Shown here piece after piece: positions 28,309 to 44,235 of a stretch of 62,048 bases of DNA. The DNA is taken from contig JBJTDZ010000141.1 of NCBI GenBank assembly GCA_046092585.1, positions 1 to 62,048 on the forward strand, read 5' to 3'. A program made the position numbers and the translations under genes. This DNA is from Pirellulales bacterium (GTDB taxonomy: Bacteria; Planctomycetota; Planctomycetia; Pirellulales; UBA1268). The stretch's first letter is position 1. Each line of letters opens with the position of its first letter. The notes below the pieces were generated by a model. The model was not told the origin of the DNA and made no database searches. It saw only the letters and a program-made list of their open reading frames with translations.

Positions 28309-29832
28309 ATGACGCACTCGCCCGCCGCCGACGTCTTCGCCGCCGCCTGCGGCCATGCCAGACGTGCCGCGGTGTTGGCGAGCATCGAGGCGGTTCTCGG
28401 CTGGGACGAGCAGACGATGCTGCCGGCCGCCGCGGGGCCGCACCGGGCGGATCAGGCCGCGGAACTGGCCGCAATCGTCCATCGGCACCGCACGGATCCG
28501 GCCCAGGGAGAGCGGCTCGCGGCGCTTGCCGAGGGGCCGCTGGCCGCGCACGGAACGCCCGAGCAGCGGACCACCATTCGGCTCCTGCGCCGCGACCACG
28601 AGAAACAGACGCGGCTGCCGAGCCGGCTCGTCGAGGAGTTGGCCCGCGTGGCCGTCGAGGCCCAGCAGGCCTGGGTGATGGCACGTCGGGATTCTTCGTG
28701 GGGCACGCTCGAGCCCTGGCTCCGGCGCATGATCGACCTCAAGCGGGAGCAGGCCGGCTGCCAGCGTCCCGACCTCGATCGCTACGACGCCCTGCTCGAT
28801 GACTACGAACCGGGGGCCCGCTGGCGGGCGCTCACGGAGCGGTTCGCGCCGCTTCGCGAGGCGGTCGTGTCGCTGATCCGCGCCTGCGGAGACTCGTCCC
28901 ATCGGCCCGACGATTCGCTGTTCACCACAGCCACCTACCCCGTCGAGGCCCAGCAGCGGTTCGTGCGTCGCGTAGCGGAGGCGATCGGCTTCGACTTTGC
29001 CCGGGGGCGGCTCGACACCACCGAGCACCCGTTCTGCTCGTCGCTCGGCCCCGACGACTGTCGGATCACCACCCGGTGGAACGATCGGTCGTTGCCCACG
29101 GCACTCTTCGGTGTTCTGCACGAGGCCGGCCACGGGCTCTACGAGCAGGGCCTGCGCCGCGAGTGGTATGGGCTGCCGCCGGGAGAGGCGGCGTCGCTGG
29201 GCGTTCACGAGTCGCAGTCGCGTCTCTGGGAAAACATGGTGGGGCGGTCGCGGGCGTTCTGGGAGTGGTGCCTGCCGATGGCCCGTGAGGCGTTTCCGGC
29301 GGCACTCGCCGGAAGGAGCGTTGCCGCCGTCCACGAGGCGCTGCTCGTCGTCAGGCCGTCGTTCATCCGGGTGGAGGCGGACGAGGTCACGTACAACCTC
29401 CATGTGATGATGCGGTTCGATCTCGAGAGGGCCCTCGTGCTCGGTGACCTCGACGTGGCCGATCTACCGACAGCGTGGAACACGCGGTTCGCCGACGACT
29501 TCGGCATGCCGCCGCCGGACGACGCCCATGGCGTGCTCCAGGACATCCACTGGAGTGCCGGGCTCGTCGGCTACTTTCCGACCTACACCCTCGGCAATCT
29601 CTACGCCGCGGAACTCATGGAGGCCGCCCGCCGCGAACTCGGCGCTGTCGACGAGGCGTTTGCCAGGGGACGGTTTGGCCCGCTGCTCGACTGGCTCCAC
29701 GCCCGCGTGCACGCCGCGGGCCGCATGCTCGAGTCGGACGCCCTCGTGACACAGGCCACCGGCAGGCCGCCGACGGCCGACTGCCTCGTGCGAAGCCTCC
29801 GCGAGCGGTATGGTGCCGCCTACCGGATTTAG
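28309..29832 (+). CDS. Carboxypeptidase, M32 (Taq-type)
   Basis: HPF, DCRITTR, HEAGH, HESQSR, IRVEADE, GVLQDIHW, GYFPTYTLG. Confidence 0.95.
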   Translation: MTHSPAADVFAAACGHARRAAVLASIEAVLGWDEQTMLPAAAGPHRADQAAELAAIVHRHRTDPAQGERLAALAEGPLAAHGTPEQRTTIRLLRRDHEKQTRLPSRLVEELARVAVEAQQAWVMARRDSSWGTLEPWLRRMIDLKREQAGCQRPDLDRYDALLDDYEPGARWRALTERFAPLREAVVSLIRACGDSSHRPDDSLFTTATYPVEAQQRFVRRVAEAIGFDFARGRLDTTEHPFCSSLGPDDCRITTRWNDRSLPTALFGVLHEAGHGLYEQGLRREWYGLPPGEAASLGVHESQSRLWENMVGRSRAFWEWCLPMAREAFPAALAGRSVAAVHEALLVVRPSFIRVEADEVTYNLHVMMRFDLERALVLGDLDVADLPTAWNTRFADDFGMPPPDDAHGVLQDIHWSAGLVGYFPTYTLGNLYAAELMEAARRELGAVDEAFARGRFGPLLDWLHARVHAAGRMLESDALVTQATGRPPTADCLVRSLRERYGAAYRI

Positions 29833-29860
29833 GATTCCCGCCAAGACCGGCACATTGCCC

Positions 29861-29880
29861 GTTGGTACACGTTGGTACAC
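29861..29880. repeat. 10-bp perfect tandem direct repeat in an intergenic region
   Basis: GTTGGTACAC twice. Confidence 0.8.
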
Positions 29881-29965
29881 TCGGGAGCGCCGGGAGGCGG
29901 GCGGTTGTCGCCCCCTGCGGCGGTGGCCTCATGACCGGGCCACGTCAGGCGACGAGGGAGACACC

Positions 29966-31876
29966 ATGGCCGACGACGACAAGAACTCCGGCGACGCATT
30001 CGACCCGTGGGCCGACCTCGAGTCCGATGCCAGTCCCGCCGCCGACGGCTTTTCATTTTCGTTCGAGGACGCGTCGCTCGATGCCGAGGTGGCGGACGGC
30101 AGCGCGGAGTCCCCGGAGGAAATGACGTCGTCGGATGACGCGCCGCCGGCGGCCGAGCAACCTGCCTTCGCGGAGGGCGGCGACACCGCCGACCTGGGTG
30201 ACGTCGGGGACGTCGGCGACTTTGGCGACTTTGGCGACATGATGGAGGCCGGTGCCTCCATGGACGTGACCGACGCCTTCCCCGGGATGGACGATCTCGC
30301 CAGTCTGGATGCCGGTGAGACGCCGGAGGAGAAGCAGGCCGACGACGCCCTCGCGGCGTCGTGGCTCGACGAACCCGCCGCCGACGCGGGTGGCGAGCGG
30401 GAAATCGACCTGCAGTTTGGCGAGGCGGCGGAAGCGCCGGTCGAAACGACGCTCGGCGTGTTCTCCCCCGACGACACCGACGCGACCGACGAACCGCAGG
30501 ACGCCATCGAGCCCTTTGCCGATAGTGCCGCGGCCGGCGAGCCGTCGGAGATCGAGATCGGCACCGGCACCTCCGCGATTTCGTCGCCGAGCGACATCGA
30601 CGCGATGGAAGGGTTCGCGGGTTTCGGCGAGCCGGGCGACGCACCGTCGCCCGACGACGAGCCAGCCGAGCAGTTTTCCTTCGGAGACATGGCATCCCAG
30701 GCCGGCGAGACGACCGCCGACGAAACGGAGACGATCGCGTTCGCCGCGGCTGCAGCGGGGGCGGCCGTGGCCGTCGCCGGCGGCGACGCGGCGGCGCCAA
30801 CGCCGGCGAAGCGGCCGGGGCGGGCCAAGCCCAAGAAGCAAAGCGGCATCGGCCAGATGCTCGGTGTCGTCCTCGGTGGCGCGATGGCGATCCCGATCAC
30901 GCTCGCCATCCTCATCTGGGGCTTCAAGAAGGATCCGTTCAAGGTCACGAAGCACGTTCCCGAATCGGTCGCATTTCTGCTGCCTGCCCAGTTTCAAAAG
31001 GGCTACGTGAAGCCGCTCGAAGGCGGGCCGGACCTGTCCGATGCCCCCTCGCTCGACGACCTGCCTTCGGCCGACACCGCCGTGGTCGATCCGGCGACGG
31101 AGCCCGCGCCAGCCGACGTCGCCACAGAGGAGCTGGTGGCGGAGGAGCCGCTGGCGCAGGAACCGGCAGACGAGCCCGCGGCCATGGAAGAGCCGGAGGA
31201 GCCGGCGTCAGGTGAGGTCGCGGCCTCGAATGAGCCGATGGAAGAACCCGCGGTTCCCGAATCTCCGCCGGCGCCCCCGGCGGCTCCCGAGCCGCCGCCG
31301 CTCGACACGGCCGCGCTCGACGGCGCCGTCGGCGATGCCTCGACCGCGCTCGATGCCCTGCGAGCAGTCGTCGACCCGGACGATCCGGTCCGCAAGACGC
31401 TGATGATCGACTGGTACAAGCACGTCGCCCGCGTCGCCGAGGAGTTGGCGCTCCTGGAACGCGAGGCCGCCGACACGGCCCGACCGCTGCAGGCCACCCC
31501 CGAGAACGTGGCGGCGCTGCACGCGGCCGTCGTCGCCACCCCGGGCCTGATCGACGATCTCGAGCGGCTCTCCCGCAACTGGCTCGCCTATTCCAAGCGG
31601 CCCAGTGACGGCGTCGTGCTGCCGGCCACCTTCGGCGGCGCGCGGCGTGTGGGACCCTTCTGGCGTTCGCAGGTGACGATCGCGGAGGCCGGTGGAAAGT
31701 CGCGGGAGGTGACCGTGATCTCCCGCACCGAGCCCGCCGTCCTTCCGGGCGACGTGGTGCTCGTCACGGGCCTCGTGCTCGCTGGCGACGTGGTCTGGGG
31801 AGCCGACGTGCGGTCGGCCAGGGCAGACCCTGCCGCGGAGCCGTCCGCCGATCCGTTTGCGACACCCGACCTGTGA
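29966..31876 (+). CDS. Acidic, largely disordered single-pass membrane protein
   Basis: About 270-aa D/E/A/F-rich N-terminus, basic patch, TM (GVVLGGAMAIPITLAILIWG), P/E linker, folded C-terminal domain; GAGGGAG RBS. Confidence 0.8.
   Translation: MADDDKNSGDAFDPWADLESDASPAADGFSFSFEDASLDAEVADGSAESPEEMTSSDDAPPAAEQPAFAEGGDTADLGDVGDVGDFGDFGDMMEAGASMDVTDAFPGMDDLASLDAGETPEEKQADDALAASWLDEPAADAGGEREIDLQFGEAAEAPVETTLGVFSPDDTDATDEPQDAIEPFADSAAAGEPSEIEIGTGTSAISSPSDIDAMEGFAGFGEPGDAPSPDDEPAEQFSFGDMASQAGETTADETETIAFAAAAAGAAVAVAGGDAAAPTPAKRPGRAKPKKQSGIGQMLGVVLGGAMAIPITLAILIWGFKKDPFKVTKHVPESVAFLLPAQFQKGYVKPLEGGPDLSDAPSLDDLPSADTAVVDPATEPAPADVATEELVAEEPLAQEPADEPAAMEEPEEPASGEVAASNEPMEEPAVPESPPAPPAAPEPPPLDTAALDGAVGDASTALDALRAVVDPDDPVRKTLMIDWYKHVARVAEELALLEREAADTARPLQATPENVAALHAAVVATPGLIDDLERLSRNWLAYSKRPSDGVVLPATFGGARRVGPFWRSQVTIAEAGGKSREVTVISRTEPAVLPGDVVLVTGLVLAGDVVWGADVRSARADPAAEPSADPFATPDL
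30191..30235 (+). repeat. Imperfect 9-bp in-frame tandem repeat x5 (DLG DVG DVG DFG DFG)
   Basis: GACCTGGGT GACGTCGGG GACGTCGGC GACTTTGGC GACTTTGGC. Confidence 0.75.
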
Positions 31877-33363
31877 GCGTCGATGGCGCTGTCGGCGACG
31901 CGGGGGCGACGGTCACGGTCGCCGCCATCGCGGCCGACGTGATAGCCGGCCGCATCACCGCAACCGCCGCGGTCGAGGAGTGCCGCCGCCGCCACGAGAA
32001 GACGGGCGCGAGCCTCAACGCGCTCGTGCAGCCACGGTTCGACGAAGCCCTCGATGAGGCGGCTGCGGTCGATGCGGCCGCCTCGCCCACCACGGCCCTG
32101 CCACTCACCGGCGTGCCGGTGAGCGTCAAGGAATGCTTTGCCGTGCGTGGCCTGGCAACCACGCTGGGAATCCCGGCACGACGCGGTGCACACGACACCG
32201 CCGATGCCGAACTCGTCGGCAGGCTTCGGCAGGCCGGGGCGATCGTCATCGGCAAGGCCAACGTGCCGCAGGCGATGTACCTTCACGAGACCGACAATCC
32301 CGTCTGGGGGCGCACGCTCCATCCGCTCGCGTCGGATCGCGGGCCGGGGGGGTCGAGCGGCGGTGACGCGGCCCTCGTGGCCGCGGGTGTGGTGCCGCTG
32401 GCGGTCGGCAACGACCTGGCCGGCAGCCTGCGGCAGCCGGCGCATGCCTGCGGCATCGTCGCGGTCATGCCGCGGACCGCGATGCTCGGTGAGGGCGGGG
32501 CGTTCGACACCATGCCGCACCTTCGCGGCGTGCGGCCCCGGGCGGGATTTCTCGGGAGGACGGTGGCCGACGTCACGGCCGGGCTGTCGGCTGTCGGCGT
32601 GCCCGCCGCCGATCGACGGGTCGGATGCGTCGGCTGGTGGGACGACGCCGGTCCGGTCGGCGCCTCGCCCGCGATCCGGCGCGGCGTGCGGGAGGCCGTG
32701 ACGCGACTGGAGCGGGCGGGCGTGCGGACGCTGCGGCTCGACGGCCGGATCGCCACCGAGGCGGCGTGGCTGCTGCTGGCGATCGCGGCTGCCGATGGCG
32801 GCGCCGACGTGAGCCGGCTCTTCGCCGGCACGCGGCCGATGCCGGGGGTACGGCGGCTCCTGGCGATCGCGGGCCTGCCGCGACGCTGGCGGCCGATCGT
32901 GGCGGCCGTGGCTCGTCTGACCGGCCATCGCATCGAGTCCGAGGGCATCCTTCGCACCGGCCCGAGGACGGCCGCCGACCTGGAAGGGATTCTTGCCGAG
33001 CGGGAGGCCGTGGCGGCGCGATTCGCGGCGCTGGCCGCCGACTGCGACGCGATCGTCTGCCCCGTCTCGGCGCTGCCGGCCCTGCGGCACGGGTCCGCCG
33101 CACGGCTCGTGCTCGCCGCCGCACCCTGCCTGCTTGCCAACCTCCTCGACCTCCCGGCGGGGGCCGTGCCGGTCACGCACGTGCGATCCGGCGAGGAGCG
33201 GTCGCGGCCCTGGCGGATCGACCCCGTGCTCCGGGCCGCCCGCGAGGCGGATCGCGACAGCCGCGGCCTGCCGGTTGGAGTGCAGGTGGTCGGCGGTCCC
33301 GGACGCGACGAGGCGAGCGTGCTCGCCGTCATGCGGCTGATCGCCGCCGCCGATTCGCCCTGA
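31873..33363 (+). CDS. Amidase signature family enzyme
   Basis: GVPVSVKE, GKANVP, PGGSSGG, GNDLAGSLRQPA, GLPVGVQVVG. Confidence 0.93.
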   Translation: MSVDGAVGDAGATVTVAAIAADVIAGRITATAAVEECRRRHEKTGASLNALVQPRFDEALDEAAAVDAAASPTTALPLTGVPVSVKECFAVRGLATTLGIPARRGAHDTADAELVGRLRQAGAIVIGKANVPQAMYLHETDNPVWGRTLHPLASDRGPGGSSGGDAALVAAGVVPLAVGNDLAGSLRQPAHACGIVAVMPRTAMLGEGGAFDTMPHLRGVRPRAGFLGRTVADVTAGLSAVGVPAADRRVGCVGWWDDAGPVGASPAIRRGVREAVTRLERAGVRTLRLDGRIATEAAWLLLAIAAADGGADVSRLFAGTRPMPGVRRLLAIAGLPRRWRPIVAAVARLTGHRIESEGILRTGPRTAADLEGILAEREAVAARFAALAADCDAIVCPVSALPALRHGSAARLVLAAAPCLLANLLDLPAGAVPVTHVRSGEERSRPWRIDPVLRAAREADRDSRGLPVGVQVVGGPGRDEASVLAVMRLIAAADSP

Positions 33364-33391: not shown

Positions 33392-34396
33392 TCAGTCCGC
33401 GAGCCGTGCGGTGACGACTCGGGCCATCGCCTCGATGCCGAGCACCTCGCAGGCGGCACCCGCGTCGATGGCCGCCTTCGGCATGCTGAACACCACGCTC
33501 GACGCCTGATCCTGCGCGATCGTGTGCCAGCCGCGGGAGCGGAGGGCGAGCAATCCGTTCGCGCCGTCGCGGCCCATGCCCGTGAGCAGGGCGGCGGTGC
33601 CGGCCCGGGGCCAGTGTTCGGCCACGCTCTGGAAGAAGACGTCGACGCTGGGGCGGAAGAAGATCTCCCGCGGCTCCGCCCGGTATTCGAGGGTGCCGGA
33701 GCGGGTGAGCACGAGGTGGTCGTTGGTGCCCGCGACGAGCACGTCGCCCGCCACCGGTTGCTGGCCGTGCTCCGCCACCCGGACCTGGCGGCCGGTGCGA
33801 TCGCCGAGCCACTTCGCCAGCCCGGGGGCGAAGGCGACGTCGACGTGCTGCACCACGACCACCGCCACGTTCCAGTCGTGCGGCAGCGGAAAGAGCAGGT
33901 CGGAGACTGCCTTGGGGCCGCCCGTCGACGCGCCCACCACCAGCAGCCGCGGTGGGCTGGCCGGCGCGGCCCGCCGCGTGCTCCGCCGCGGGTCGGCCGT
34001 CGCGCCGACGAGCTTGGCGATGGTCCCGATCTTTTCGACAAGGGCCCCTGCGCCGCTCACCTCGCCGGAGGGGCCGAGCATCGGCGTGTCGACCGCATCG
34101 AGGGCTCCGTAGCCCATCGCGTCGTAGACGAGCGAGATGTTGCCGCTCACGGTGGCGGTGACGACCAGGATCGCGCACGGCGCCGTGGCCATGATCTGCC
34201 GCGTGGCCTGGGCGCCGTCCATGTGCGGCATCAGCAGGTCCATCAGGATCAGGTCAGGACGGTCGCGGCGTGCCAGCGCGATCGCCTCGACGCCGTCGCC
34301 GGCCGTCCAGGCGACCTCGTGGTCCGGCAGGCTGTCGACCACGCGGCGGAGCGCCTCGCAGGCGGCCTTCATGTCGTTGACGATCGCGATCCGCAT
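33392..34396 (-). CDS. cheB: Chemotaxis methylesterase CheB, WspF-like
   Basis: MRIAIVND receiver domain; GASTGGP, VQH, RPSVD, LTGMGRDG. Confidence 0.95.
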   Translation of the reverse strand: MRIAIVNDMKAACEALRRVVDSLPDHEVAWTAGDGVEAIALARRDRPDLILMDLLMPHMDGAQATRQIMATAPCAILVVTATVSGNISLVYDAMGYGALDAVDTPMLGPSGEVSGAGALVEKIGTIAKLVGATADPRRSTRRAAPASPPRLLVVGASTGGPKAVSDLLFPLPHDWNVAVVVVQHVDVAFAPGLAKWLGDRTGRQVRVAEHGQQPVAGDVLVAGTNDHLVLTRSGTLEYRAEPREIFFRPSVDVFFQSVAEHWPRAGTAALLTGMGRDGANGLLALRSRGWHTIAQDQASSVVFSMPKAAIDAGAACEVLGIEAMARVVTARLAD

Positions 34397-34565
34397 TGCC
34401 GCTCCAGCCTGGTCTGCATCCGAGACAGATGAATCCCCGGCTCGGGGGCGGCAAAAGTCTCGTCGCCGGGGCGAGGATACGCCCAAGGCTCCTCGAGCGT
34501 TCGCCGACCCCCTCGCCTCCGGTGTTCACATGGTTCCATCGACGCGCAGGCACCGCCCGGTGGAT

Positions 34566-36881
34566 TCAGGCCGTCGCCTCACCGATCAGGTCGATGATCG
34601 TATCGACGAACGTCTCGTCGTGGAAACTGCTTTTCGTGAGATAGCGGTTGGCGCCGGCATCGAGGCCCCGCAGCCGGTCTTCCTCGCGATCCTTGTAGGA
34701 GACGATCACGACCGGGATGTCCCGGCGGGCGGGGTCGGCCTTGATGAGCGACACCAGGCCGATGCCGTCCATCCGCGGCATGTCGACGTCGGTGACGACG
34801 AGGTCGTAGTGGGTGCCGCGGATGGTGTTCCAGCCGTCCATGCCGTCGACCGCCACGTCGACGGCGAAGCCCCGGGCCTGGAGCAGCTGCCGTTCCAGCT
34901 CCCGCACCGTGATCGAGTCGTCGACGACGAGGATCCGCTTCCGCCGGCGGGCCTGTTCGGTCATCCGCTCGAACTCGACCCGCGACAGCCGGCGTCCGGC
35001 GAGCACGTTGTCGATGGATCGGACGAGATCCTCCACGTCGACGATCAGCACCGGGTCGCCGTTCTCCAGGAGCGACACGCTATTGATGTCGGGCACCTTG
35101 CCGAGACGCGGGTCGAGCGGCCGCACCTCGAGGTCGCGCTCCCCGAGAAACGAATCGACGATCATGCCGAACTGCTGGCCGCGGTCGCTGATCACCACCA
35201 CCGGCATCGGGTCGGCCGGCGGTGCCGCGGTCGCCTCGAGCACCTGCGCGGCGAGCACCAGGCCGATCGACACGCCGTCGCGGTCGAAGTACTGCCGCCC
35301 CTCCACGGTCCGCACGTCGGCCGCGGCGCAGAACAGGATCTGGTCGATGCGGGTGAGCGGGAAGGCGTAGGGCTCGCCTCCGATCTCGACGATCAGCGCC
35401 CGGATCACCGACATCGTGATCGGCAGCTGGAGCGTGAACATGGTCTGGCGGCCCGGCTGCGTGGCGATCCGCACGCTCCCGCCGACGCTCTTCACCATGC
35501 TTTGCACCACGTCGAGTCCGACGCCGCGGCCGGAGATCTCCGTCACCTGGTCGCGGGTGGAGAAGCCCGGCAGGAAGAGAAACTCGAGCAACTCGAGCTC
35601 CGTGAGCTGGTCGGCCACCTGGCGGGCCACGAGGCCGCGGGCCACTGCCTTCGCCCGAAGGTGCTCCACCTCGATGCCGCGGCCGTCGTCGCTGAGCGTG
35701 ATCTGCAGCATCCCGGCCCGGTGCCTCGCCTCGAGGCGGATCGTGCCGGTGGCGGGCTTGCCCGCCGCCTCGCGGTCGGCCGGCCGCTCGAGGCCGTGGT
35801 CGAGCGCGTTGCGGATCAGGTGGCTGAGCGGGGCCTCGAGCTTGTCGAGGATGTCGCGGTCGACGCCCGTCTGCTCGCCGCGAACCTCGAACCGCACCTG
35901 CTTGCCCATCTGGCGGGCGAGGTCGCGGACGAGCCGGGGGAAGCCGCGGATGCCATCGGCCAGCGGCCGCATGCGGCTCACGATGACCTCGTGGTGGAGG
36001 CGGTTGGAGAGATCCTCGTTGCGGCGGGCGAAGCTCTCGAAATCCTCGACGTGGCGAGTGAGGGCGGCGAGGGCGCTGTCGGCCCGTTCGCGGATCGTGG
36101 TGAGCATGGCGGCCGCCGTGGCGGATCCCGTGGCATCGCCCCCCTTGAACCGTTCATCGAGGGCGGCAATCGCGTCGCAGAGGTCGACCTCCGCGGCCCG
36201 CAAGAGCAGCAGCGATTCCACGAACGGCCGCAGCTGCCGGGTCTCCACGAGCGACTCGCCGGCCAGGCCCACCAGCCGCGTGAGGCTGTCGGCCGAGACC
36301 CGCACGACCCGGTCTGACTGCTCGGCCGTCCGGGCCGCCGCCGAGGGCTCCACGGCAGGGGCGGGCTCCGCGGGGGCCGGCTCCGTCGCGGTCGCCGTCG
36401 GAGCGGGTGCGGGAGCCGCGGCCGCAGGCGTCGCGCCGCCCGCCGCCGCGGGGAGCGCGTCGGATGTCGTGGACGACGTCTGGTCGGCGAGCATGCCCGC
36501 CAGATCGGCCACGAGCCGCTCGGCCTGCCCGGGCCAGGCGGCGTGTGGCTCGAGCGCGTCGTCGGCCCTGGCGATCGCCGCCAGGAAGTCGACGCCCGCG
36601 AGCAGCCGGTCGGCATGACGCGGCTCCACGCGGAAAGCCCCCCTGCCCGCCGCCACGAACACGTCCTCGAGCGCGTGGGCGACGCGCACCGCCGGATCGA
36701 GTCCGACGATCCGCGCGGCCCCCTTGAGCGAATGCGCCGCCCGCATCATCGCCTCGACCGTGCGGGGCGAACGCTGCAACTCCTCGATGGCCAGCACCCC
36801 GGCCGAGAGCACGGCCGTCTGGCTCTCCGCCTCGAGGCGGAACAGTTCCAGCATCGAAAATCCGCTCAGGTCGTCAGCCAT
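34566..36881 (-). CDS. cheA: Hybrid CheA-receiver kinase, WspE-like
   Basis: Hpt MRAAHSLKGAA, HLIRNALDHG, FLPGFST..SGRGVGLDVV, CheW domain, C-terminal receiver (VVDDS, DVDMPRMDG). Confidence 0.95.
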   Translation of the reverse strand: MADDLSGFSMLELFRLEAESQTAVLSAGVLAIEELQRSPRTVEAMMRAAHSLKGAARIVGLDPAVRVAHALEDVFVAAGRGAFRVEPRHADRLLAGVDFLAAIARADDALEPHAAWPGQAERLVADLAGMLADQTSSTTSDALPAAAGGATPAAAAPAPAPTATATEPAPAEPAPAVEPSAAARTAEQSDRVVRVSADSLTRLVGLAGESLVETRQLRPFVESLLLLRAAEVDLCDAIAALDERFKGGDATGSATAAAMLTTIRERADSALAALTRHVEDFESFARRNEDLSNRLHHEVIVSRMRPLADGIRGFPRLVRDLARQMGKQVRFEVRGEQTGVDRDILDKLEAPLSHLIRNALDHGLERPADREAAGKPATGTIRLEARHRAGMLQITLSDDGRGIEVEHLRAKAVARGLVARQVADQLTELELLEFLFLPGFSTRDQVTEISGRGVGLDVVQSMVKSVGGSVRIATQPGRQTMFTLQLPITMSVIRALIVEIGGEPYAFPLTRIDQILFCAAADVRTVEGRQYFDRDGVSIGLVLAAQVLEATAAPPADPMPVVVISDRGQQFGMIVDSFLGERDLEVRPLDPRLGKVPDINSVSLLENGDPVLIVDVEDLVRSIDNVLAGRRLSRVEFERMTEQARRRKRILVVDDSITVRELERQLLQARGFAVDVAVDGMDGWNTIRGTHYDLVVTDVDMPRMDGIGLVSLIKADPARRDIPVVIVSYKDREEDRLRGLDAGANRYLTKSSFHDETFVDTIIDLIGEATA

Positions 36882-36896
36882 GGCCGCCGCCTCCGT

Positions 36897-37634
36897 TCAT
36901 GGCGACACCGCGTCGCGCAGGGCGTCGAAGAGCCGCCCCTCGTCGAGCAGGGCGACGGTGCGATCCTGCCACGCGAAGAGGGCCGAGCAGCAGCGGGCCG
37001 CCGCCTGGCTCACGGTGGACGGCACGGGCCGCAGGTCGGCGCTGCCGACGCGGTGGACGCCCGCGAGTTCGTCGATGCCGAGCACCCAGCGGTCGGTCCC
37101 GCGGTCGGTCGTCCGTTCCACCACCATGAGCCGTCGTGTGGTCGCCTCCACGTGGGACGCGTCTCCGTCCACCAGCCCACCGGGGCCGGGGGAAGGGCTG
37201 CCGTCGAGGCCGAGGATCGCGTGCAGCGAGACGCACGGCTGCAGTTGTCCGCGGATGTTGACGAGGCCCGCCAGTGCGCCGCCGGCCCGATGAGGCACGC
37301 TGTGGAGCCGCCGCTCGACCGTGACCTCCACCAGCACCGCCGTGGGCAGGGCGAGCCACTCGCCGTCGATGCGAAACACGAGCACGCCCGTGTCGGCGGT
37401 CTCGGTCGATTCCGCCGGCTCCTCGAGAATCGCCCGCCACGACTCCAGGTAGCCCGCGGGCGCTTCCCGGTCGAAGAACGATCGGGCGGCCTCGGCGAGC
37501 ACCGGACAGTTGCGGCAATGGATGAACGACTGCAGCTCGGGGCAGCTGCGGTCGCCCGCCACGCCGACGATCCGCCAGCATTCGGGCATCGGCTGCTCCA
37601 CCCGCAGGGGCTCGTCATGACGGTGGTCGATCAT
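36897..37634 (-). CDS. cheW: CheW-like adaptor, WspD-like
   Basis: WspD-type N-terminus CW..VGV.GD.SCPEL...HCRNCPV followed by a CheW domain. Confidence 0.92.
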   Translation of the reverse strand: MIDHRHDEPLRVEQPMPECWRIVGVAGDRSCPELQSFIHCRNCPVLAEAARSFFDREAPAGYLESWRAILEEPAESTETADTGVLVFRIDGEWLALPTAVLVEVTVERRLHSVPHRAGGALAGLVNIRGQLQPCVSLHAILGLDGSPSPGPGGLVDGDASHVEATTRRLMVVERTTDRGTDRWVLGIDELAGVHRVGSADLRPVPSTVSQAAARCCSALFAWQDRTVALLDEGRLFDALRDAVSP

Positions 37635-38878
37635 GGCGTCCCCTTTCGGGCCAACACCCGTGCGGCCGACTGGCGGTAGGTTTCCGCCATGCGGGTGTCA
37701 CCCCGCCGTCGGGCCAGCAGTGCCAGGGCCAGCAGGGCCTCCTCGTGGCTGGCGTCGAGGTAGAGCGTCTTGTGGAAGCAGCCCTCGGCGCGGTCGGCGT
37801 CGCCGACGGCCTGGTGCAGCATGCCCATCAGGAAGAAGACCTCCGGGGCCGGGGGGAGTTTCGCCCGCCAGCGCTCGCAGAGGGCGAGGGCCTCGAGGTG
37901 CCTGCCCGCGTTGGCCAGGTGTCCTGCCTCGTCGAGCAGGTCGCCGAGCGACGGAACCGGCTCCTCGGCCACGGCGTCGGCCGGGGCGACGGGGCGGGGC
38001 GACGCCGGCGCGGCCACGAACCGTGGTGCTGGCCGCCGGGCCGCCTGCGGAGGCCTGGCAGCGGTCGGCGGGGCGGGGCGATCGGCCAGATGGATGCCGC
38101 GGCGCAGCGCGAACACCGATGCCGCGCCCGCCTGGATCCAGTCGCCCCGCATGATGGGCGGCTCGGCGGCACCGAGAATCAGGATGCCGTCGGGGCGAAG
38201 CAGCCCGTCGACGACCCGCTCCACCCGCCGCCGGGCGTCGTCGGTGAGGTAGATCAGCAGGTTGCGGCAAAAGATGACGTCGTACGGCCCGCGGTCGATC
38301 GCGAAGCCCTCGTCGAGCAGGTTGCCCCATGCAAACTTCACGCAGCCGCGGACCCGCTCGTCGATCACCGAGCCCGTGCCGGCCGGGCGAAACCAGCGGT
38401 CGCGAAACGCCGCGTCGGCGTTTCGGAAGGCGTTGGCCGAGTACCGGCCGCGGGCCGCCCGGGCCAGGGCGGCATGGCTGACGTCGACGGCGTCGATCGT
38501 GAACTGCTCCGGCGTCAGCCCGGTGTCGAGCAGGGCCATGGCCACGGAGTAGGGCTCCTCGCCTGACGCGCAGGGGGCACACAGGATCCGCACGGGGGTG
38601 CGTCCCGGAAGCCCGACGAGCGTGGCGGCGAAGTCGGCCACGAACGAGAAGACCTGGCCGTCGCGGAAGAACCAACTCTCGGCGACGATCACCTCCTCCA
38701 CGAGGCGGTCGCGCTCGGCGGCATCACCCCGCACCACCTTGGCGAACGCGTCGGGATCGTCGATGCCGAGGGCGGCCATGCGGGTTCGCACCGCGCGGTC
38801 CACGGCAGCGGATCCGATCGTGGCCGCATCCAGCCCGATCCACTCGCGGAGCAGGTGCTCGACGGGGGCGATGGTCAT
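37631..38878 (-). CDS. cheR: CheR methyltransferase with C-terminal TPR, WspC-like
   Basis: ESWFFRD, CASGEEPYS, DVIFCRNLLIY, TPR with KTLYLD..HEEAL. Confidence 0.94.
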   Translation of the reverse strand: MTIAPVEHLLREWIGLDAATIGSAAVDRAVRTRMAALGIDDPDAFAKVVRGDAAERDRLVEEVIVAESWFFRDGQVFSFVADFAATLVGLPGRTPVRILCAPCASGEEPYSVAMALLDTGLTPEQFTIDAVDVSHAALARAARGRYSANAFRNADAAFRDRWFRPAGTGSVIDERVRGCVKFAWGNLLDEGFAIDRGPYDVIFCRNLLIYLTDDARRRVERVVDGLLRPDGILILGAAEPPIMRGDWIQAGAASVFALRRGIHLADRPAPPTAARPPQAARRPAPRFVAAPASPRPVAPADAVAEEPVPSLGDLLDEAGHLANAGRHLEALALCERWRAKLPPAPEVFFLMGMLHQAVGDADRAEGCFHKTLYLDASHEEALLALALLARRRGDTRMAETYRQSAARVLARKGTP

Positions 38879-39327
38879 GGCAGCGCGGAGTCCGGGGCGG
38901 GGGGCGTGGGGGTCGGCACCTCGTCGGGCAGCAGGCTGTCGATCTCGAGCAGTTGGACCGTGCGGCCGTCGATGCGGAGGATGCGGCCGAGGAAGGGGGC
39001 TCGTGTGGCGTCGAGCGGGGCGAGCGAGGCGGCGGCGTTGGTGTCGGAGCAGATCGAGATCACGTCTTCGGCGATGAGCCCGGTGCGGCGTCGATCGCCG
39101 TCGACCACGATGACCCGCGTGCTGAGCCGCTCCGCGGGGGGCCGCACGCCGAACAGGGTCGCGAGGTCGAGCAGGGGCAGGAGTGCCCCCCGGTAGGTGA
39201 AGACGCCACGGACCGACGGTGGGGTCTGCGGGATCGGCCGCGCCGGAACCAGCGGCAGCACCTCGACCACCCGCCGCGATTCGACCGCGTAGGTCTCTCC
39301 GCCGATGGTGAAGGTGAGCAGTTGCAT
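38875..39327 (-). CDS. cheW: CheW-like adaptor, WspB-like
   Basis: LTFTIGGETYA, VVEVLP, GVFTYRG.LLPLLDL, STRVIVV. Confidence 0.92.
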   Translation of the reverse strand: MQLLTFTIGGETYAVESRRVVEVLPLVPARPIPQTPPSVRGVFTYRGALLPLLDLATLFGVRPPAERLSTRVIVVDGDRRRTGLIAEDVISICSDTNAAASLAPLDATRAPFLGRILRIDGRTVQLLEIDSLLPDEVPTPTPPAPDSALP

Positions 39328-39348
39328 GGGAGGGGTGTGCCGGCGGCG

Positions 39349-41361
39349 TCAGATCGTGAACCGCGAGACCTCCTCCTTGAGGTCGCCGACGGCCTCGCGG
39401 AGGTGCACCGTGGCGCCGTTGAAGTCGTTGAGCGAGGACGCGGTGCGGGATGCGCCTTCGGCGAGACGGATCATCGCCTCGCGGATCTGCTCCGCGCCCT
39501 GCGACTGGGCCCGCATGCCCTCCGTCACCTGGCCGAACCTTCCGGAGATCCCTTGCACCGCGGTGATGATCTCGCCGAGCTTGGCGGACACCGCGCCGAT
39601 CTCGCGGACGCCCGTGCGAACCTGTTCGGCGAACTTGTCCATCTCCATCACGCCCGCCGACACGCTGTACTGCATGTCCTTGACCATGCGTTCGATGTCG
39701 AGCGATGCCACGGCGGTCTGGTCCGCGAGCCGGCGGATCTCGCGTGCCACCACCAGGAAGCCGAGGCCGTATTCACCCGCCTTTTCGGCCTCGATGGCGG
39801 CGTTGATGGAGAGCAGGTTGGTCTGGTCGGCCACCTTGGTGATCGTGGTGACCGCCAGGTTGATGGTGGCGGCCCGCTCGCTGATCACGGCGAGCTTGGA
39901 GCCGAACGAGGCGGTGCTCTCGGCGAGATGTCGCATGGTGCCGTCCATGCCGGCGAGATCGGCCCGTCCGTCCACGGCCATCCGGCCGGTGTGCCCCGCC
40001 ATGTCATTGACCTCCGTCATCGTCCGCACGAGTTCCTGGCTCGTGACGGAGATCTGTTTCACCGCTGCCACGGCCTCGCTGGTGGAGGCGCCGTAGTCGG
40101 TGATCACCTGCTGCTGCTCGCTCGCCGTCGCCTGGATGGCGGTGGCCGTCGAGATCAGCGCCACCGACGAGTGCTGGATCCGGCCGATGAGGCCGCGAAG
40201 GTCGTTGGTCATCGTCTGGATGGCGGTGAGCAGGGCCCCCGTCTCGTCGTCGGTGAGCCCGCCGACGTCGGCCCGCAGGTCGCCGCCGGCCACCTGGTTG
40301 GCCACGGCCACCGCGGTGCGGATCGGCGTGGAGATGGTGCGGGCCACGACGAGGGCCGCAGCCGTCACGCCCACGATCGTCGCCAGCGAGAGGCCGATCA
40401 CCGCGAGCCGCTGGAAACGGATCAGCCCGAAGGCCTCGTCGGCATCCTGCTTGACGACGAGCCCCCAGCGGAAGCTGGGCACGTAGCACCAGGCCGCTGC
40501 CACGTCGGTGCCGCGGTAGTCGACCGCCTCGCCGTAGCCGCGGTCGCCGGCCGCCGCCCGTTGCGTGGACGTCGCCTGCGCCGAGGTGAGAGGAATACGG
40601 AGGCGGAACGGGGCGTTGGTGGCGTGCCGCAAGGGCGTGGTGATCAGCACCGACGAGCCGGCGAGTTCACCGCCCACGATCTCGCCGGTGTCGCCGAGCC
40701 CGGTCAGGTCGGAGAGGATCTTCCACACCCGCTGCGTGCCGATGGCCAGCGCGAGGACGCCGGTGACCCGACCCTCGTCGAAGACGGGGCAGGTGACGAA
40801 GGCGAGGGGCGTCATCGACCGGCCGTAGGGCTGGAAGCCGGAGAGATCCGACTGCAGCAGCGTGCGGGCGCGGTCGAAGCCCGTGGCGAGTTCGGAGGAT
40901 GCGAGCACGCCCCCCGTCACGCTGCCGCCGCGGGGCACGTCGTCGCCCAGTGAAAACACGACCCGACCGGTGGCGTCGAGGAGCAGCAGATCGGCGTAGT
41001 CGAACGCCTTGGCGACGTAGGTGAAGTACTCGTGAAACTCGTCGCCGGCTTCCCGCAGCTGCTCGGCGTCGGTCAGCGGCGACAACTCGCGAATGGCCTG
41101 CACGAAGGTCGGTCCACGGGCAAAGGCGGCACAGTCGCGAACCCGCTCGGCGGCGTAGGCCTCCAACTCGTTGGCCTTGCCGGCGGCGATCTGCACGAGG
41201 TTGTCGCGCACCGCTTTCTCGAGCGCCCGTGTCGCGATGCGGGCCGTGATCGCAGTAAGGATCGCGCACGGGATGAGTGCGATCACGAGGAACCAGAAGA
41301 GCAATCGGCCCGCGATCGACCGCCGCAGGCTGCCGCCGCGGTGCTCGGTGTGCATGCTCAT
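39349..41361 (-). CDS. Methyl-accepting chemotaxis protein with dCache-like sensor, WspA-like
   Basis: TM1, about 280-aa periplasmic domain (DYRG..V.AAW..WGLVVK), TM2, HAMP, signalling tip [25 protein letters not shown]. Confidence 0.94.
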
Positions 41362-42725
41362 CGCGTGGCCTCCATCGCGTCCGTCGGGCCGCCGGGGGCG
41401 GTCGTCGTGTTGCCCCATTGGCCGCCCCAGGACCGCCGCAGGTCGCCCACGAACGCCTCCCATTCGGGCCGCGAACGGGAGATCGGAAATGGGACGGGCC
41501 GCACGGCCGTCCGGCTGGTCCAGACGATGTCGAACTGCCCGTCGTTCCGCACGCGGCCGATGAACACCGGCCGCCAGGTGTGCTGCGTTTCCGGATCGAT
41601 CGCGATGATGCCCTCCGGCGCGTTCATGCTCTGGTGCCGCATCGCGTTGCGAACCGGCCGCACGTCGGCGGTCTCGGCCTCGCGCACGGCCTGGGCCCAG
41701 AGTCGCACGCTGTTGTAGGCCGCGACCGTGACATCGGAGGCCACGCGGTCGGCACCGTAGCGGGCCTTGAAGGCCCGCACGAACGCCAGGTTCTCCGGCC
41801 GCTCGATACTCTGGAAGTAGTTCCATGCGGCATAGGTGCCCGCAAGGGTGGCGGCCGACCCGTCACGGAGTTCGTTTTCCGCGATGGCGAACGTCACGAT
41901 CGGGGTCGTCTCCGCCGACAGCCCCGCCGCCCGCACGGCCCGCGCGAACGGGATCGCCGAGTCACCCACCACGGTGCTCAGGATCACGTCGGGTTTCGCG
42001 GCGGCGATGCGGGCGGCGAGCGCGTCGGCGTCGGTGCTGCCGAAGGGGAGGTAGGCCTCGCCCACCAGCGTGGCGTCGAGGCCCGCGAGCTGGTCGGCGG
42101 CGATTGCGTTGACGCAGTGGGGCCAGATGTAGTCGGAGCCCACCAGGAAAAACCGACGGGCCTGCAGGGCGTCGTGGCACCACTGCACCGCCGGGGTGAT
42201 CTGCTGGTTGGGTGCAGCACCGGTGTAGATGATGTTCGGTGACTGCTCGAGACCCTCGTACGCCATGGGGTAGACGAGGAGGTGATCGTGCGACTCGACC
42301 ACCGGCAGCACGCTCTTGCGGGAGGCGCTGGTCCAGCAGCCGAAGATCACGCTCACGCCATGCTCGCGGATCAGCGACTCCGCCTCGCGGGCGAATGTGG
42401 GCCAGTCGGAGGCACCGTCGGCGACCACCCAGCGGATCGGCCTGCCGAGGAGACCGCCCTGCCTGTTCAGTTCCTCGAGCGCGAGGATTTCCGCGTCGAT
42501 CATCGAGCGTTCGCTGACGGCCATGGGACCGGTCTGCGAGTGGAGGATGCCGACGACGATCGGGTGGCGGGCAATCAGGATCCTGTCGACGGCAAACCAC
42601 GCGGCGGCCGCCAACGCCGCGATCCCGAGCACGACGACGGAGCCGAGCCAGCGGCGCGCGGGGCGGGCGTCGGCTTCCGCCGTGGCCGGCCGGGCGACGG
42701 TCGGTGACATCCGGGCCATGGACAT
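41358..42725 (-). CDS. UrtA/AmiC-family urea/amide-binding protein, membrane-anchored, no transporter adjacent
   Basis: [61 protein letters not shown]. Start uncertain (42725/42719/42710). Stop overlaps the MCP start. Confidence 0.9.
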
Positions 42726-43098
42726 GGAAAGACCATTCGAGGTGACGGCGGCGGTGGCAGGCCGGCACGCACGGCGCGCACCGCACCACCCTGCCGCTCC
42801 TGCAATCTTTGTCCATCTTTCCCGACCGGGCGACGAGCCGGCGAGAAAACGGGGCCGAGGGCGCCGGTCGTCCCGGTTTTTCGGCCGCAGGAGGGCATCT
42901 CGCCCGGTTCGACCGTCACCAGTCGTTCGAACGCCCCCCACCGTGCGGGCCCCCTCGCCCGCCGGTTGCCCGGGACGGCCTTCTGGCCCGGTGCCCGCAA
43001 ATGGGGTATATCAACGAGGCGGCGCGAGCGTGGCTCCGTACCGGGGGTGCCCGGGGTCGAAGCGTGCGGGTGGACGTCGCTGCGAAGGACGCCGACGA

Positions 43099-44235
43099 AT
43101 GGAGTGTGCAACCGGTTCCGCGCGGGCCAACGACGCGATCCAGCGGATCGTCGGTGTCTCCCCGTGGGCGGAGCAGGTGCGGCGCTCGATCGAACTGGTC
43201 GCCGTCCACCAGTCGAGCGTGCTGATCCTCGGCCCGAGCGGCACGGGGAAGGAGCTGATCGCGCGGGCGATTCATGCCTGCAGCCTGCGGTCGAAGAAAC
43301 CCTTCATCCCCGTCGACTGCGCGGTCACCACGGGCACGCTCTTCGCCAGCCACATGTTCGGGCACGTGAAGGGGTCGTTCACCGGTGCCACGTCATCGAC
43401 GCTCGGCTGCTTCCGCGCGGCCGACGCGGGCACCATCTTCCTCGACGAGATCGGGGAGATGGAGCTCGAACTGCAGGCCAAGCTGCTTCGCGTGCTCCAG
43501 CAACGCGTCGTGGTGCCGGTCGGCAGCCACCAGGAGATACCGGTCGACGTGCGGGTGCTGGCCGCCACGAATCGTGATCTCGCCGCCGAGGTGCAGGCCG
43601 GGCGCTTTCGAGAGGATCTCTTCTACCGTCTCAACGTGGTGGCGATCCGCACCATTCCGCTTCGCGAGCGGGTCGAGGACATCCCCGTGCTGGCGGATCG
43701 CTACCTGGCGGAGCTCGCCACCCGTCATGGCATGCCGATGTGCACGCTGTCGCCATCGGCGGTCGAGGTGCTGCAGGGCTACTCGTGGCCCGGCAATGTC
43801 CGCGAGCTCGAAAACGTGCTGGAGAGGGCGGTGATGTTTTCGTCGGGCGACCAGATCGATCCCGACGCGCTTACGGGCCTGATGATGGGATCGCAGCCCG
43901 GTGCGACGCCAGCCCCCGGTGGCATCGGCCAACTGGCTGCGGCCGCAGGGCAGGGCATCGTTTCACCGACGCCGTTGCCGGGCGTATACCGCGTGGAGCC
44001 GAGGCTGGTGCCGGCGGTCCCCGCCGCGCCGCCGGCGAAGGACGACAGCTCGGCAGCGACCGGTGACGGCTGGCCCACCCTGGCCGACGTGGAGCGGATG
44101 CACCTCGAGAAGACGCTTGCGGCCACCATGCGCAACAAGTCGCTGGCGGCGAAGATGCTGGGCGTCGACCGCTCGGTGCTGCGGCGGAAGCTGCAGCGGC
44201 ACGGCCTCGACGACACCGCCGGCGCGGGCGAGTAG
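43099..44235 (+). CDS. Sigma54-dependent enhancer-binding protein with no N-terminal regulatory domain
   Basis: Walker [15 protein letters not shown] loop, [26 protein letters not shown], Fis-type HTH; only about 15 aa precede the AAA+ domain. Confidence 0.9.

Follow-up and report, generated by a model that had tools for sequence, protein, structure and literature searches.

A UrtA-family binding protein as candidate amide-sensing co-receptor of a Wsp-type chemosensory array in a Pirellulales bacterium

What does a binding protein of the urea-transporter type do at the head of a chemosensory operon with no transporter genes beside it? This question is raised by a 62,048-nucleotide stretch of DNA from a Pirellulales bacterium (contig JBJTDZ010000141.1 of assembly GCA_046092585.1, lineage UBA1268; the whole stretch is hereafter the window), in which a UrtA/AmiC-family gene directly precedes that of a methyl-accepting chemotaxis protein (MCP) and a set of Wsp-like che genes. 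A preliminary description of this DNA had proposed that the binding protein was repurposed here as a co-receptor feeding a urea or small-amide signal into a non-motility array. The reading favored in this study, with a probability of about 0.52, is that of a tethered amide-binding co-receptor of the MCP. The binding protein, held at the membrane and independent of any transporter, would bind a short aliphatic amide in the periplasm, similar to acetamide and different from urea, and relay its presence to the double-Cache (dCache) domain of the MCP, whose gene comes immediately after its own. This receptor would in turn modulate the CheA-REC kinase of a Wsp-type array belonging to the ACF (alternative cellular function) class, with CheR and CheB providing adaptation, and the phosphoryl group would be transferred to a REC-PP2C (SpoIIE) phosphatase encoded on another contig.

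The operon was confirmed as seven genes, all on the minus strand, in the order UrtA-like, MCP, CheW, CheR, CheW, CheA-REC and CheB, and the resemblance to wspA-F claimed earlier therefore stands after a check of order, strand and domains. Its features, in window coordinates, are as follows.

41358-42725, minus strand: UrtA/AmiC-family binding protein of 455 aa, signalling clade (PF13433, 492 bits)
42588-42644, minus strand: hydrophobic N-terminal segment of the binding protein, residues 28-46 (hydropathy)
41415-41498, minus strand: C-terminal extension of the binding protein, residues 410-437, typical of signalling copies (motif comparison)
39349-41361, minus strand: MCP with TM1, dCache_1, TM2, HAMP and MCPsignal of about 40 heptads (dCache_1 50.4 bits, cut-off 45)
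38875-39327, minus strand: CheW, WspB-like (domain match)
37631-38878, minus strand: CheR with a C-terminal TPR-like region, WspC-like (domain matches)
36897-37634, minus strand: CheW with an N-terminal extension, WspD-like (domain match)
34566-36881, minus strand: CheA, Hpt-HATPase-CheW-REC, WspE-like (domain matches)
33392-34396, minus strand: CheB, REC-methylesterase, WspF-like, last gene of the operon (domain matches)

The stop codon of the binding-protein gene overlaps the start codon of the MCP gene in an ATGA at 41358-41361, and ATGA overlaps also join the first CheW gene to the CheR gene and the latter to the second CheW gene. By hydropathy, the binding protein has a single hydrophobic stretch, residues 28-46, and similar N-termini are found among the relatives listed. 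This stretch is likely an uncleaved membrane anchor; both the stretch and the overlap reported earlier are real.

The MCP shows two hydrophobic stretches (residues 20-38 and 321-339, by hydropathy). AlphaFold modelled its periplasmic part with a pLDDT of 95 and a pTM of 0.90, and the model matches dCache structures such as PctA (Foldseek E 1.8e-10), which agrees with the Pfam match and with the dCache-like domain noted before. A PDB sequence search with the dCache region found nothing, and a pattern search of this region for the amino-acid-binding dCache motif, a weak test, was also negative. The signalling domain measures 141 residues from HAMP to the tip and 140 from the tip to the end, and so reaches the 40-heptad length that we take to be a mark of the Wsp-type/ACF class. 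Relatives of the MCP carry a WspA label (JGI), close relatives are labelled Pirellulales or Planctomycetia, and a second protein search returned close family members only. The genome also encodes a stand-alone second MCP (G000:C148:5980-8055, locus L019), which is 46.5% identical over residues 269-670, has a different Cache-like domain and lacks an upstream binding protein; it may feed the same array.

One explanation of the first gene is that it encodes an ordinary transporter binding protein, which serves a permease elsewhere and neighbors the operon by chance. The protein has the ABC-binding-protein fold, the assembly is divided into 151 contigs, and the genome holds a LivH/M-type permease pair (on contig C149) and two further PF02653 permeases. 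However, the LivH/M-type pair, which is the best UrtB-like match, has its own adjoining binding protein. The absence of urtBCDE from the window noted previously extends to UrtB in the whole genome, where no match over the cut-off was found at 98.49% completeness. Against the UrtA model TIGR03407 the window protein scored 455.2, below the cut-off of 492.75, which is a weak test because the model also passes some non-transporter copies (such as the one at locus L045).

Phylogenetic analysis points in the same direction. An IQ-TREE tree of 40 rows separated the 28 proteins that are paired or kinase-fused from the rest by a single branch (support 72/99) and placed the window protein in a clade of ten (100/99), in agreement with a 134-row FastTree tree. 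Forcing the window clade together with nine transporter proteins was rejected (p-AU 0.006), as was forcing it with two amide-type transporter proteins (p-AU 0.035); the grouping with transporter-linked UrtA, named in the preliminary description as an argument against its own proposal, is thus not seen. Duplicate loci (five pairs) were dropped from the trees, from alignments A2 and A3 and from the comparison of dCache positions, and one degenerate domain (the second copy of P0019) was dropped from the tree. The C-terminal motif was present in 20/20 pairs of the family, 50/65 other pairs and 4/4 kinase fusions, and in none of 13 transporter proteins or five second paralogs. Given these results and the conserved pairing described below, the binding protein is not a transporter subunit, and the transporter explanation, already largely refuted, is highly improbable. 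A second UrtA-like paralog of the genome (G000:C139:8840-10045, locus L002), 41% identical to the window protein, carries a full urea pocket and lies between a bestrophin-like gene and an AIM24-family gene with no transporter adjoining; such paralogs are frequent in the family and make up a clade of their own (100/100).

The association of the two genes was examined in 150 other genomes of the family, which were searched with the binding protein and with the N-terminal half of the MCP, and the coordinates of the best 150 matches of each were compared. Among the matches listed, an ortholog of the binding protein was present in 108 genomes, in 107 of which it lies directly before the MCP. The MCP was found among the matches listed in 128 genomes, 21 of them without a listed partner: 18 belong to genus g8, two have a partial partner at a contig edge, and in one the receptor begins 192 bases into the contig. 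The operon is split in genus g3: neither of the two loci read has che genes next to the pair, and in 5 of 5 genomes cheA was located on a different contig. The binding protein therefore remained beside the MCP at this split.

The pairing is not restricted to this family. In a search of 300 genomes of the phylum, two of the three best matches directly precede homologous receptors of the dCache type, namely a hybrid kinase and a SpoIIE phosphatase, and the next-best matches are Ser/Thr-kinase fusions, which also dominate the longer homologs (50-57% identity). A GTDB scan was then based on the dCache alignment alone to avoid circularity, and 80 of its 283 matches were listed, duplicates included. 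A UrtA-like gene lies directly upstream in 69 of these 80 loci, is missing from nine (eight Omnitrophota and one Nitrosomonas) and is cut off by the contig in two, which gives 69 of 78 informative loci; without 16 members of the window family and two seed loci, the partner is upstream in 51 of 60. Paired loci had supplied five of the six dCache seeds, and kin do not count as independent; these numbers are therefore descriptive, and the other 203 matches lie outside them. No urtB/urtC match was detected in the 80 loci. The paired records are labelled Planctomycetota, Pseudomonadota, Nitrospirota, Myxococcota, Acidobacteriota and Verrucomicrobiota, and one Bacteroidota-labelled record looks mis-binned. 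Receptor outputs in the 69 loci comprise MCP (29), histidine kinase (23), GGDEF-EAL (10), SpoIIE (3) and HlyD-like (1), with three cut off. Two loci (L099 and L133) have a second UrtA with an over-cut-off urtB about 6 kb downstream of the pair, and the paired copy is therefore an extra one beside a real urea transporter.

Thus, the pairing is conserved both in the family and beyond it, and the earlier idea of a local repurposing has to give way to that of a widespread two-gene module placed in a Wsp-type operon. As the protein has no transporter here and its gene immediately precedes that of a double-Cache receptor across many bacterial phyla, it is likely the ligand-catching partner of this receptor, and the separate clade supports the same conclusion for the non-motility MCP of the window. 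A co-receptor role, in which the two proteins would be in contact, therefore appears quite probable.

The receptor side was compared as well. Four dCache positions (L168, L169, Y179 and R274), which 75-89% of 91 paired receptors conserve, are depleted in the two dCache lineages that lack a partner (9 + 9 sequences), as would be expected if they formed part of an interface, each partner-less lineage representing a single event. Distances of binding proteins and dCache domains are correlated (Spearman 0.70, 49 non-family rows), which was not used as evidence for co-evolution because kin share their history. At L137:1053-3362, where the binding protein in front has a degenerate pocket, the same dCache domain is fused to an HlyD/CusB membrane-fusion domain.

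Several other arrangements of UrtA-like domains were encountered. Among the records P0001-P0120 are many Ser/Thr kinase-TM-UrtA-like fusions and multi-domain UrtA-like/HEAT proteins; most of the 19 that were examined have the full urea pocket, and these proteins are candidate one-component urea sensors. An apparent fusion of a binding protein with a dCache-HAMP-PAS-kinase (P0022, 60% identical) was treated as a two-gene read-through, because the topology would misplace the binding domain and the next TM1 and the record is a single one. Ten metagenome loci (L212, L215, L217-L221, L223, L226 and L227) represent another orphan UrtA-like type, with Ser at the Y190 site, Val at the N246 site and no dCache or urtB match; a divergent sigma-54 activator accompanies seven of the ten.

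Which ligand is then bound? For UrtA, nine pocket residues have been named, of which S122, Q144, Y190 and N246 hydrogen-bond urea, and mutation of any of these four greatly lowers or abolishes urea binding (PMC10392092). The side chains of Q144 and N246 hold the first nitrogen (N1), and S122, Y190 and the main chain of residue 144 hold the oxygen and the second nitrogen (PMC10392092). The corresponding residues of the window protein are W131, S133, Y152, A155, E157, Y199, W201, V253 and A280. Five of the nine are kept (W, S, Y, E and Y), and those at the Q144, F192, N246 and S274 sites are changed. With regard to the hydrogen-bonding set, S133 and Y199 are kept, A155 replaces Q144 and V253 replaces N246, so that the full set is absent. 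The pocket would therefore keep its contacts for one carboxamide, with those for the second amino group turned into a hydrophobic wall, as judged from residue comparison.

The possibility that the protein is a urea co-receptor deserves mention, since its nearest solved structures are of the UrtA type and the complete urea pocket, with its nine residues, is found in 36 of the 65 other paired proteins. Replacement of Q144 by Ala155 and of N246 by Val253 makes urea an unlikely ligand of the window copy, and no urease alpha or urea carboxylase over the cut-off was found in its genome, which also lacks a urt transporter match over the cut-off. A urea co-receptor is accordingly quite improbable, and this part of the earlier proposal is not supported, whereas its small-amide signal is compatible with the pocket. 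Val at the N246 site occurs in AmiC as V206, within a five-residue stretch identical to that around V253, and V206 belongs to the AmiC pocket list (PMC13531289). Three transporter proteins share the W192/V246 pair, one of them in a formamidase operon. From the likeness to AmiC and to the formamidase-linked transporter, a short aliphatic amide is predicted. The W192/V246 transporter proteins carry Phe at the Q144 site, where the window protein has Ala, and its pocket should therefore be roomier; the shift to W and V looks convergent in these transporter proteins and the window clade (p-AU 0.035).

A related possibility is that the protein is a true co-receptor of the MCP for some other small molecule, neither a simple aliphatic amide nor urea, for example a substituted urea or a small carbonyl compound. 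Several sites distinguish the window pocket from that of AmiC (Y83 is replaced by W, P107 by A, Y152 by W and T233 by A), the Q144 site distinguishes it from the formamidase-linked type (A for F), and its clade travels without an amide-catabolic gene. On the other hand, the primary-carboxamide contacts of UrtA (S122, Y190 and the main chain of 144) are all present and the loss is confined to the second-nitrogen contacts, so another ligand seems rather unlikely. Given a co-receptor role, a short amide is somewhat favored as the ligand.

The distribution of pocket types provides further information. Frameshifted or partial binding proteins (match <250 residues) were left out of the pocket table, and two of the five duplicate pairs were dropped. 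The 65 other paired proteins comprise 36 with the full urea set, 18 with the altered set and 11 that are otherwise different, and the module therefore probably began as a urea sensor. Retention of the altered pocket extends over seven genera of the family and, at 57-89% identity, to records labelled Gemmataceae, Verrucomicrobiota or Gammaproteobacteria. In metagenomes it was found in 22 of 80 loci, of which 19 continue with a dCache gene and three end at a contig edge, and the eight loci with urtB all carry the full urea pocket. Taken together, the data suggest, as a reasonably probable generalization, a widespread two-gene module in which a tethered UrtA-family binding protein and one dedicated dCache_1 subfamily would together form an exchangeable urea/amide sensor that is coupled to histidine kinases, c-di-GMP enzymes, PP2C phosphatases or chemoreceptors and occurs in six phyla or more; the ligand would be set only by the binding-protein pocket, being urea in most lineages and a short amide in the planctomycete ACF clade.

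On the output side, no wspR-like or other response-regulator gene follows cheB at the window locus, and the genome has a single partial GGDEF match, in a 165-aa frame; the system is therefore not of the WspR kind. Four other planctomycete genomes carry this operon with a REC-SpoIIE gene after cheB (Pfam-confirmed in two of the four), and in a fifth the contig ends. An ortholog of this REC-PP2C protein, 62% identical, is encoded in the window genome at G000:C28:18233-19408 and is the likely output, a link suggested by synteny in the other genomes. A multidomain response regulator in the cluster is a criterion for ACF systems, and REC-phosphatases are among the outputs listed for CheR-TPR/ACF clusters (PMC3447774). 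By gene order and length of the MCP signalling domain, the window operon is an ACF system, and it is not Wsp proper. A separate che cluster on contig C60 and a gene with a weak FliF match could serve motility. Directly upstream of the REC-PP2C ortholog lies an MpsC-family (PF10057) gene (G000:C28:19504-19813; L155:7505-7813), next to a tuf-secE-nusG-rplK cluster.

Several observations weigh against the reading of a tethered amide-binding co-receptor, besides the narrow base of the GTDB counts and the indirect link to the output. The signalling-clade branch is only moderately supported (bootstrap 72). No FmdA-family formamidase/acetamidase match was found in the window genome, no amide-catabolic gene travels with the window-pocket clade, and the amidase gene next to the operon is convergent with it and was not found beside the pair outside the family, and was therefore given no weight as evidence on the ligand. 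In 18 of the 20 g8 genomes the MCP has no paired binding protein; in each of the eight loci covered together with their upstream region, lpxA is directly upstream of the MCP and the che operon is intact over the stretch covered, so the MCP works, or at least is kept, without the binding protein. Degenerate pockets with long branches form one clade, comprising genera g5, g7 and g11 and two g8 copies (10 sequences, chosen for divergence). Surface sensing by WspA is independent of its periplasmic domain (PMC8320348), and the window MCP may therefore have a second input.

These points would fit an explanation in which the MCP is mainly a WspA-like surface or envelope sensor and the binding protein a ligand-independent modulator or an inherited passenger nearing loss: the gene is lost in g8 with the operon intact, pockets degenerate in a sister set of genera, and the periplasmic domain is dispensable in WspA. 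Retention of the altered pocket across the seven genera and the records labelled outside the family implies selection on ligand binding, and the gene remained with the MCP at the operon split. The passenger explanation is therefore considered unlikely, and the amide-binding co-receptor is preferred. Six of the ten degenerate proteins (L010, L012, L015, L017, L038 and L039) have Arg at the Q144 site and Asp at the Y190 site; the urea-like guanidinium of this Arg could fill the pocket and lock these proteins without a ligand. In g8, an FHA-domain gene lies between cheB and the amidase gene at L025:2965-3852, and a similar 1-kb gap is present in other g8 loci.

Among known systems, the closest are BasB/BasT and CosB/CosT of Halobacterium salinarum, in which a binding-protein gene is likewise directly upstream of that of a dCache-like chemoreceptor and not tied to a transporter, and BasB belongs to the Peripla_BP_6 family, related to PF13433 (PMC8050422). 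The window gene is likewise tied to a receptor rather than a transporter and its receptor has the dCache fold; the window system would work like BasB/BasT, and its binding protein is not UrtA or AmiC proper. The archaeal pairs mediate chemotaxis to amino acids or quaternary amines, whereas the window has a bacterial PF13433/UrtA-type protein in a non-motility ACF system, and modules of its type are reused with four output types. Partner binding proteins of chemoreceptors are mostly linked to transporters, with BasB/BasT and CosB/CosT as the directly upstream cases (PMC8050422); the words urea, UrtA and amide do not occur in the main text of that review. LuxP/LuxQ, HptA/HptS, NspS/MbaA and ScrB/ScrC also place a dedicated binding protein beside a dCache-type receptor, but these receptors are kinases or GGDEF-EAL proteins, with binding proteins of other families and other ligands (PMC8050422).

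UrtA of the UrtABCDE transporter (TIGR03407; PDB 8HIC, 7S6E and 7S6F; PMC10392092) is of the same family and has five of nine pocket residues in common with the window protein, which differs in falling below the model cut-off, in having no permease and an extra C-terminal segment, and in its separate clade. AmiC of the Pseudomonas aeruginosa amidase operon (PDB 1PEA) is likewise a PF13433 protein in signalling, and it shares the Val at the N246 site and the aromatic character of the 192 site; it binds short amides (acetamide and propionamide), is cytoplasmic and controls the ANTAR antiterminator AmiR, whereas the window protein carries a hydrophobic segment near its N terminus and is encoded next to a membrane receptor. 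No ANTAR gene adjoins the binding-protein gene, whose neighbors encode the MCP and a sigma-54 activator, the search for ANTAR being limited to these neighbors. The Pseudomonas Wsp/ACF operon (PMC3447774, PMC8320348) has the same order mcp-cheW-cheR(TPR)-cheW-cheA(REC)-cheB, but the window lacks the REC-GGDEF diguanylate cyclase WspR, likely has a REC-PP2C output and combines a dCache receptor with an upstream binding protein.

In the literature, PF13433 is listed with one amide-bound structure (PMC10443332), PF13433 proteins are described as cytoplasmic partners of ANTAR proteins (bioRxiv 10.1101/2024.02.22.581678), and Wsp genes are reported from freshwater planctomycetes, with no mention of urea in the portion of that article consulted (PMC6461901). 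Literature searches, which covered few subscription journals and excluded supplements, returned no description of a UrtA-family binding protein paired with a dCache receptor, and those on FmdD and on urea sensing with histidine kinase and UrtA gave nothing.

Binding-protein-dependent receptors have so far been known case by case. If correct, the present reading would supply many orphan dCache receptors with an input, namely urea or short amides, both of which are organic sources of nitrogen; among these receptors are those of the cultured Paramagnetospirillum marisnigri SP-1, Azospirillum oleiclasticum, Caenispirillum bisanense, Sulfuricella sp. T08 and Novipirellula sp. SH528. Many genes annotated as urea transporter binding proteins would not be transporter parts, which affects genome-based inference of urea uptake. 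It would also mean that a pathway of the Wsp type, which as a class is usually associated with the sensing of surfaces, receives a chemically defined signal, and the lineages with an intact pocket, a degenerate pocket or gene loss offer a natural series for testing such an input.

Some minor features of the locus may be added. The TPR region of CheR (residues 314-405) gave weak NCBIfam matches only (best E 1.5e-6) and no Pfam TPR match. Divergent from the operon is a sigma-54 activator gene (window about 43078-44235, plus strand) with AAA and HTH domains, in which no receiver or sensor domain was found and which is syntenic in many, though not all, genera of the family. A sigma-54 promoter as its target was rejected, as the pattern gave 44 matches versus 55.6 expected by chance, none of them just upstream on the operon strand. 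The amidase-signature enzyme (PF01425; window 31873-33363, plus strand), convergent on cheB, scores below all NCBIfam cut-offs, and next to it lies a gene for a long, acidic, low-complexity membrane protein with no Pfam match (window 29810-31876, plus strand); both show family-wide synteny. Between cheA and cheB is a GC-rich, hairpin-capable element of about 100 bases (window 34419-34518), and the CheB start was placed at 34396 because the longer frame from 34486 crosses this repeat. By blastn, the element has 62 matches on 46 contigs of the genome, 39 of them of at least 80 bases, and it is REP- or MITE-like.

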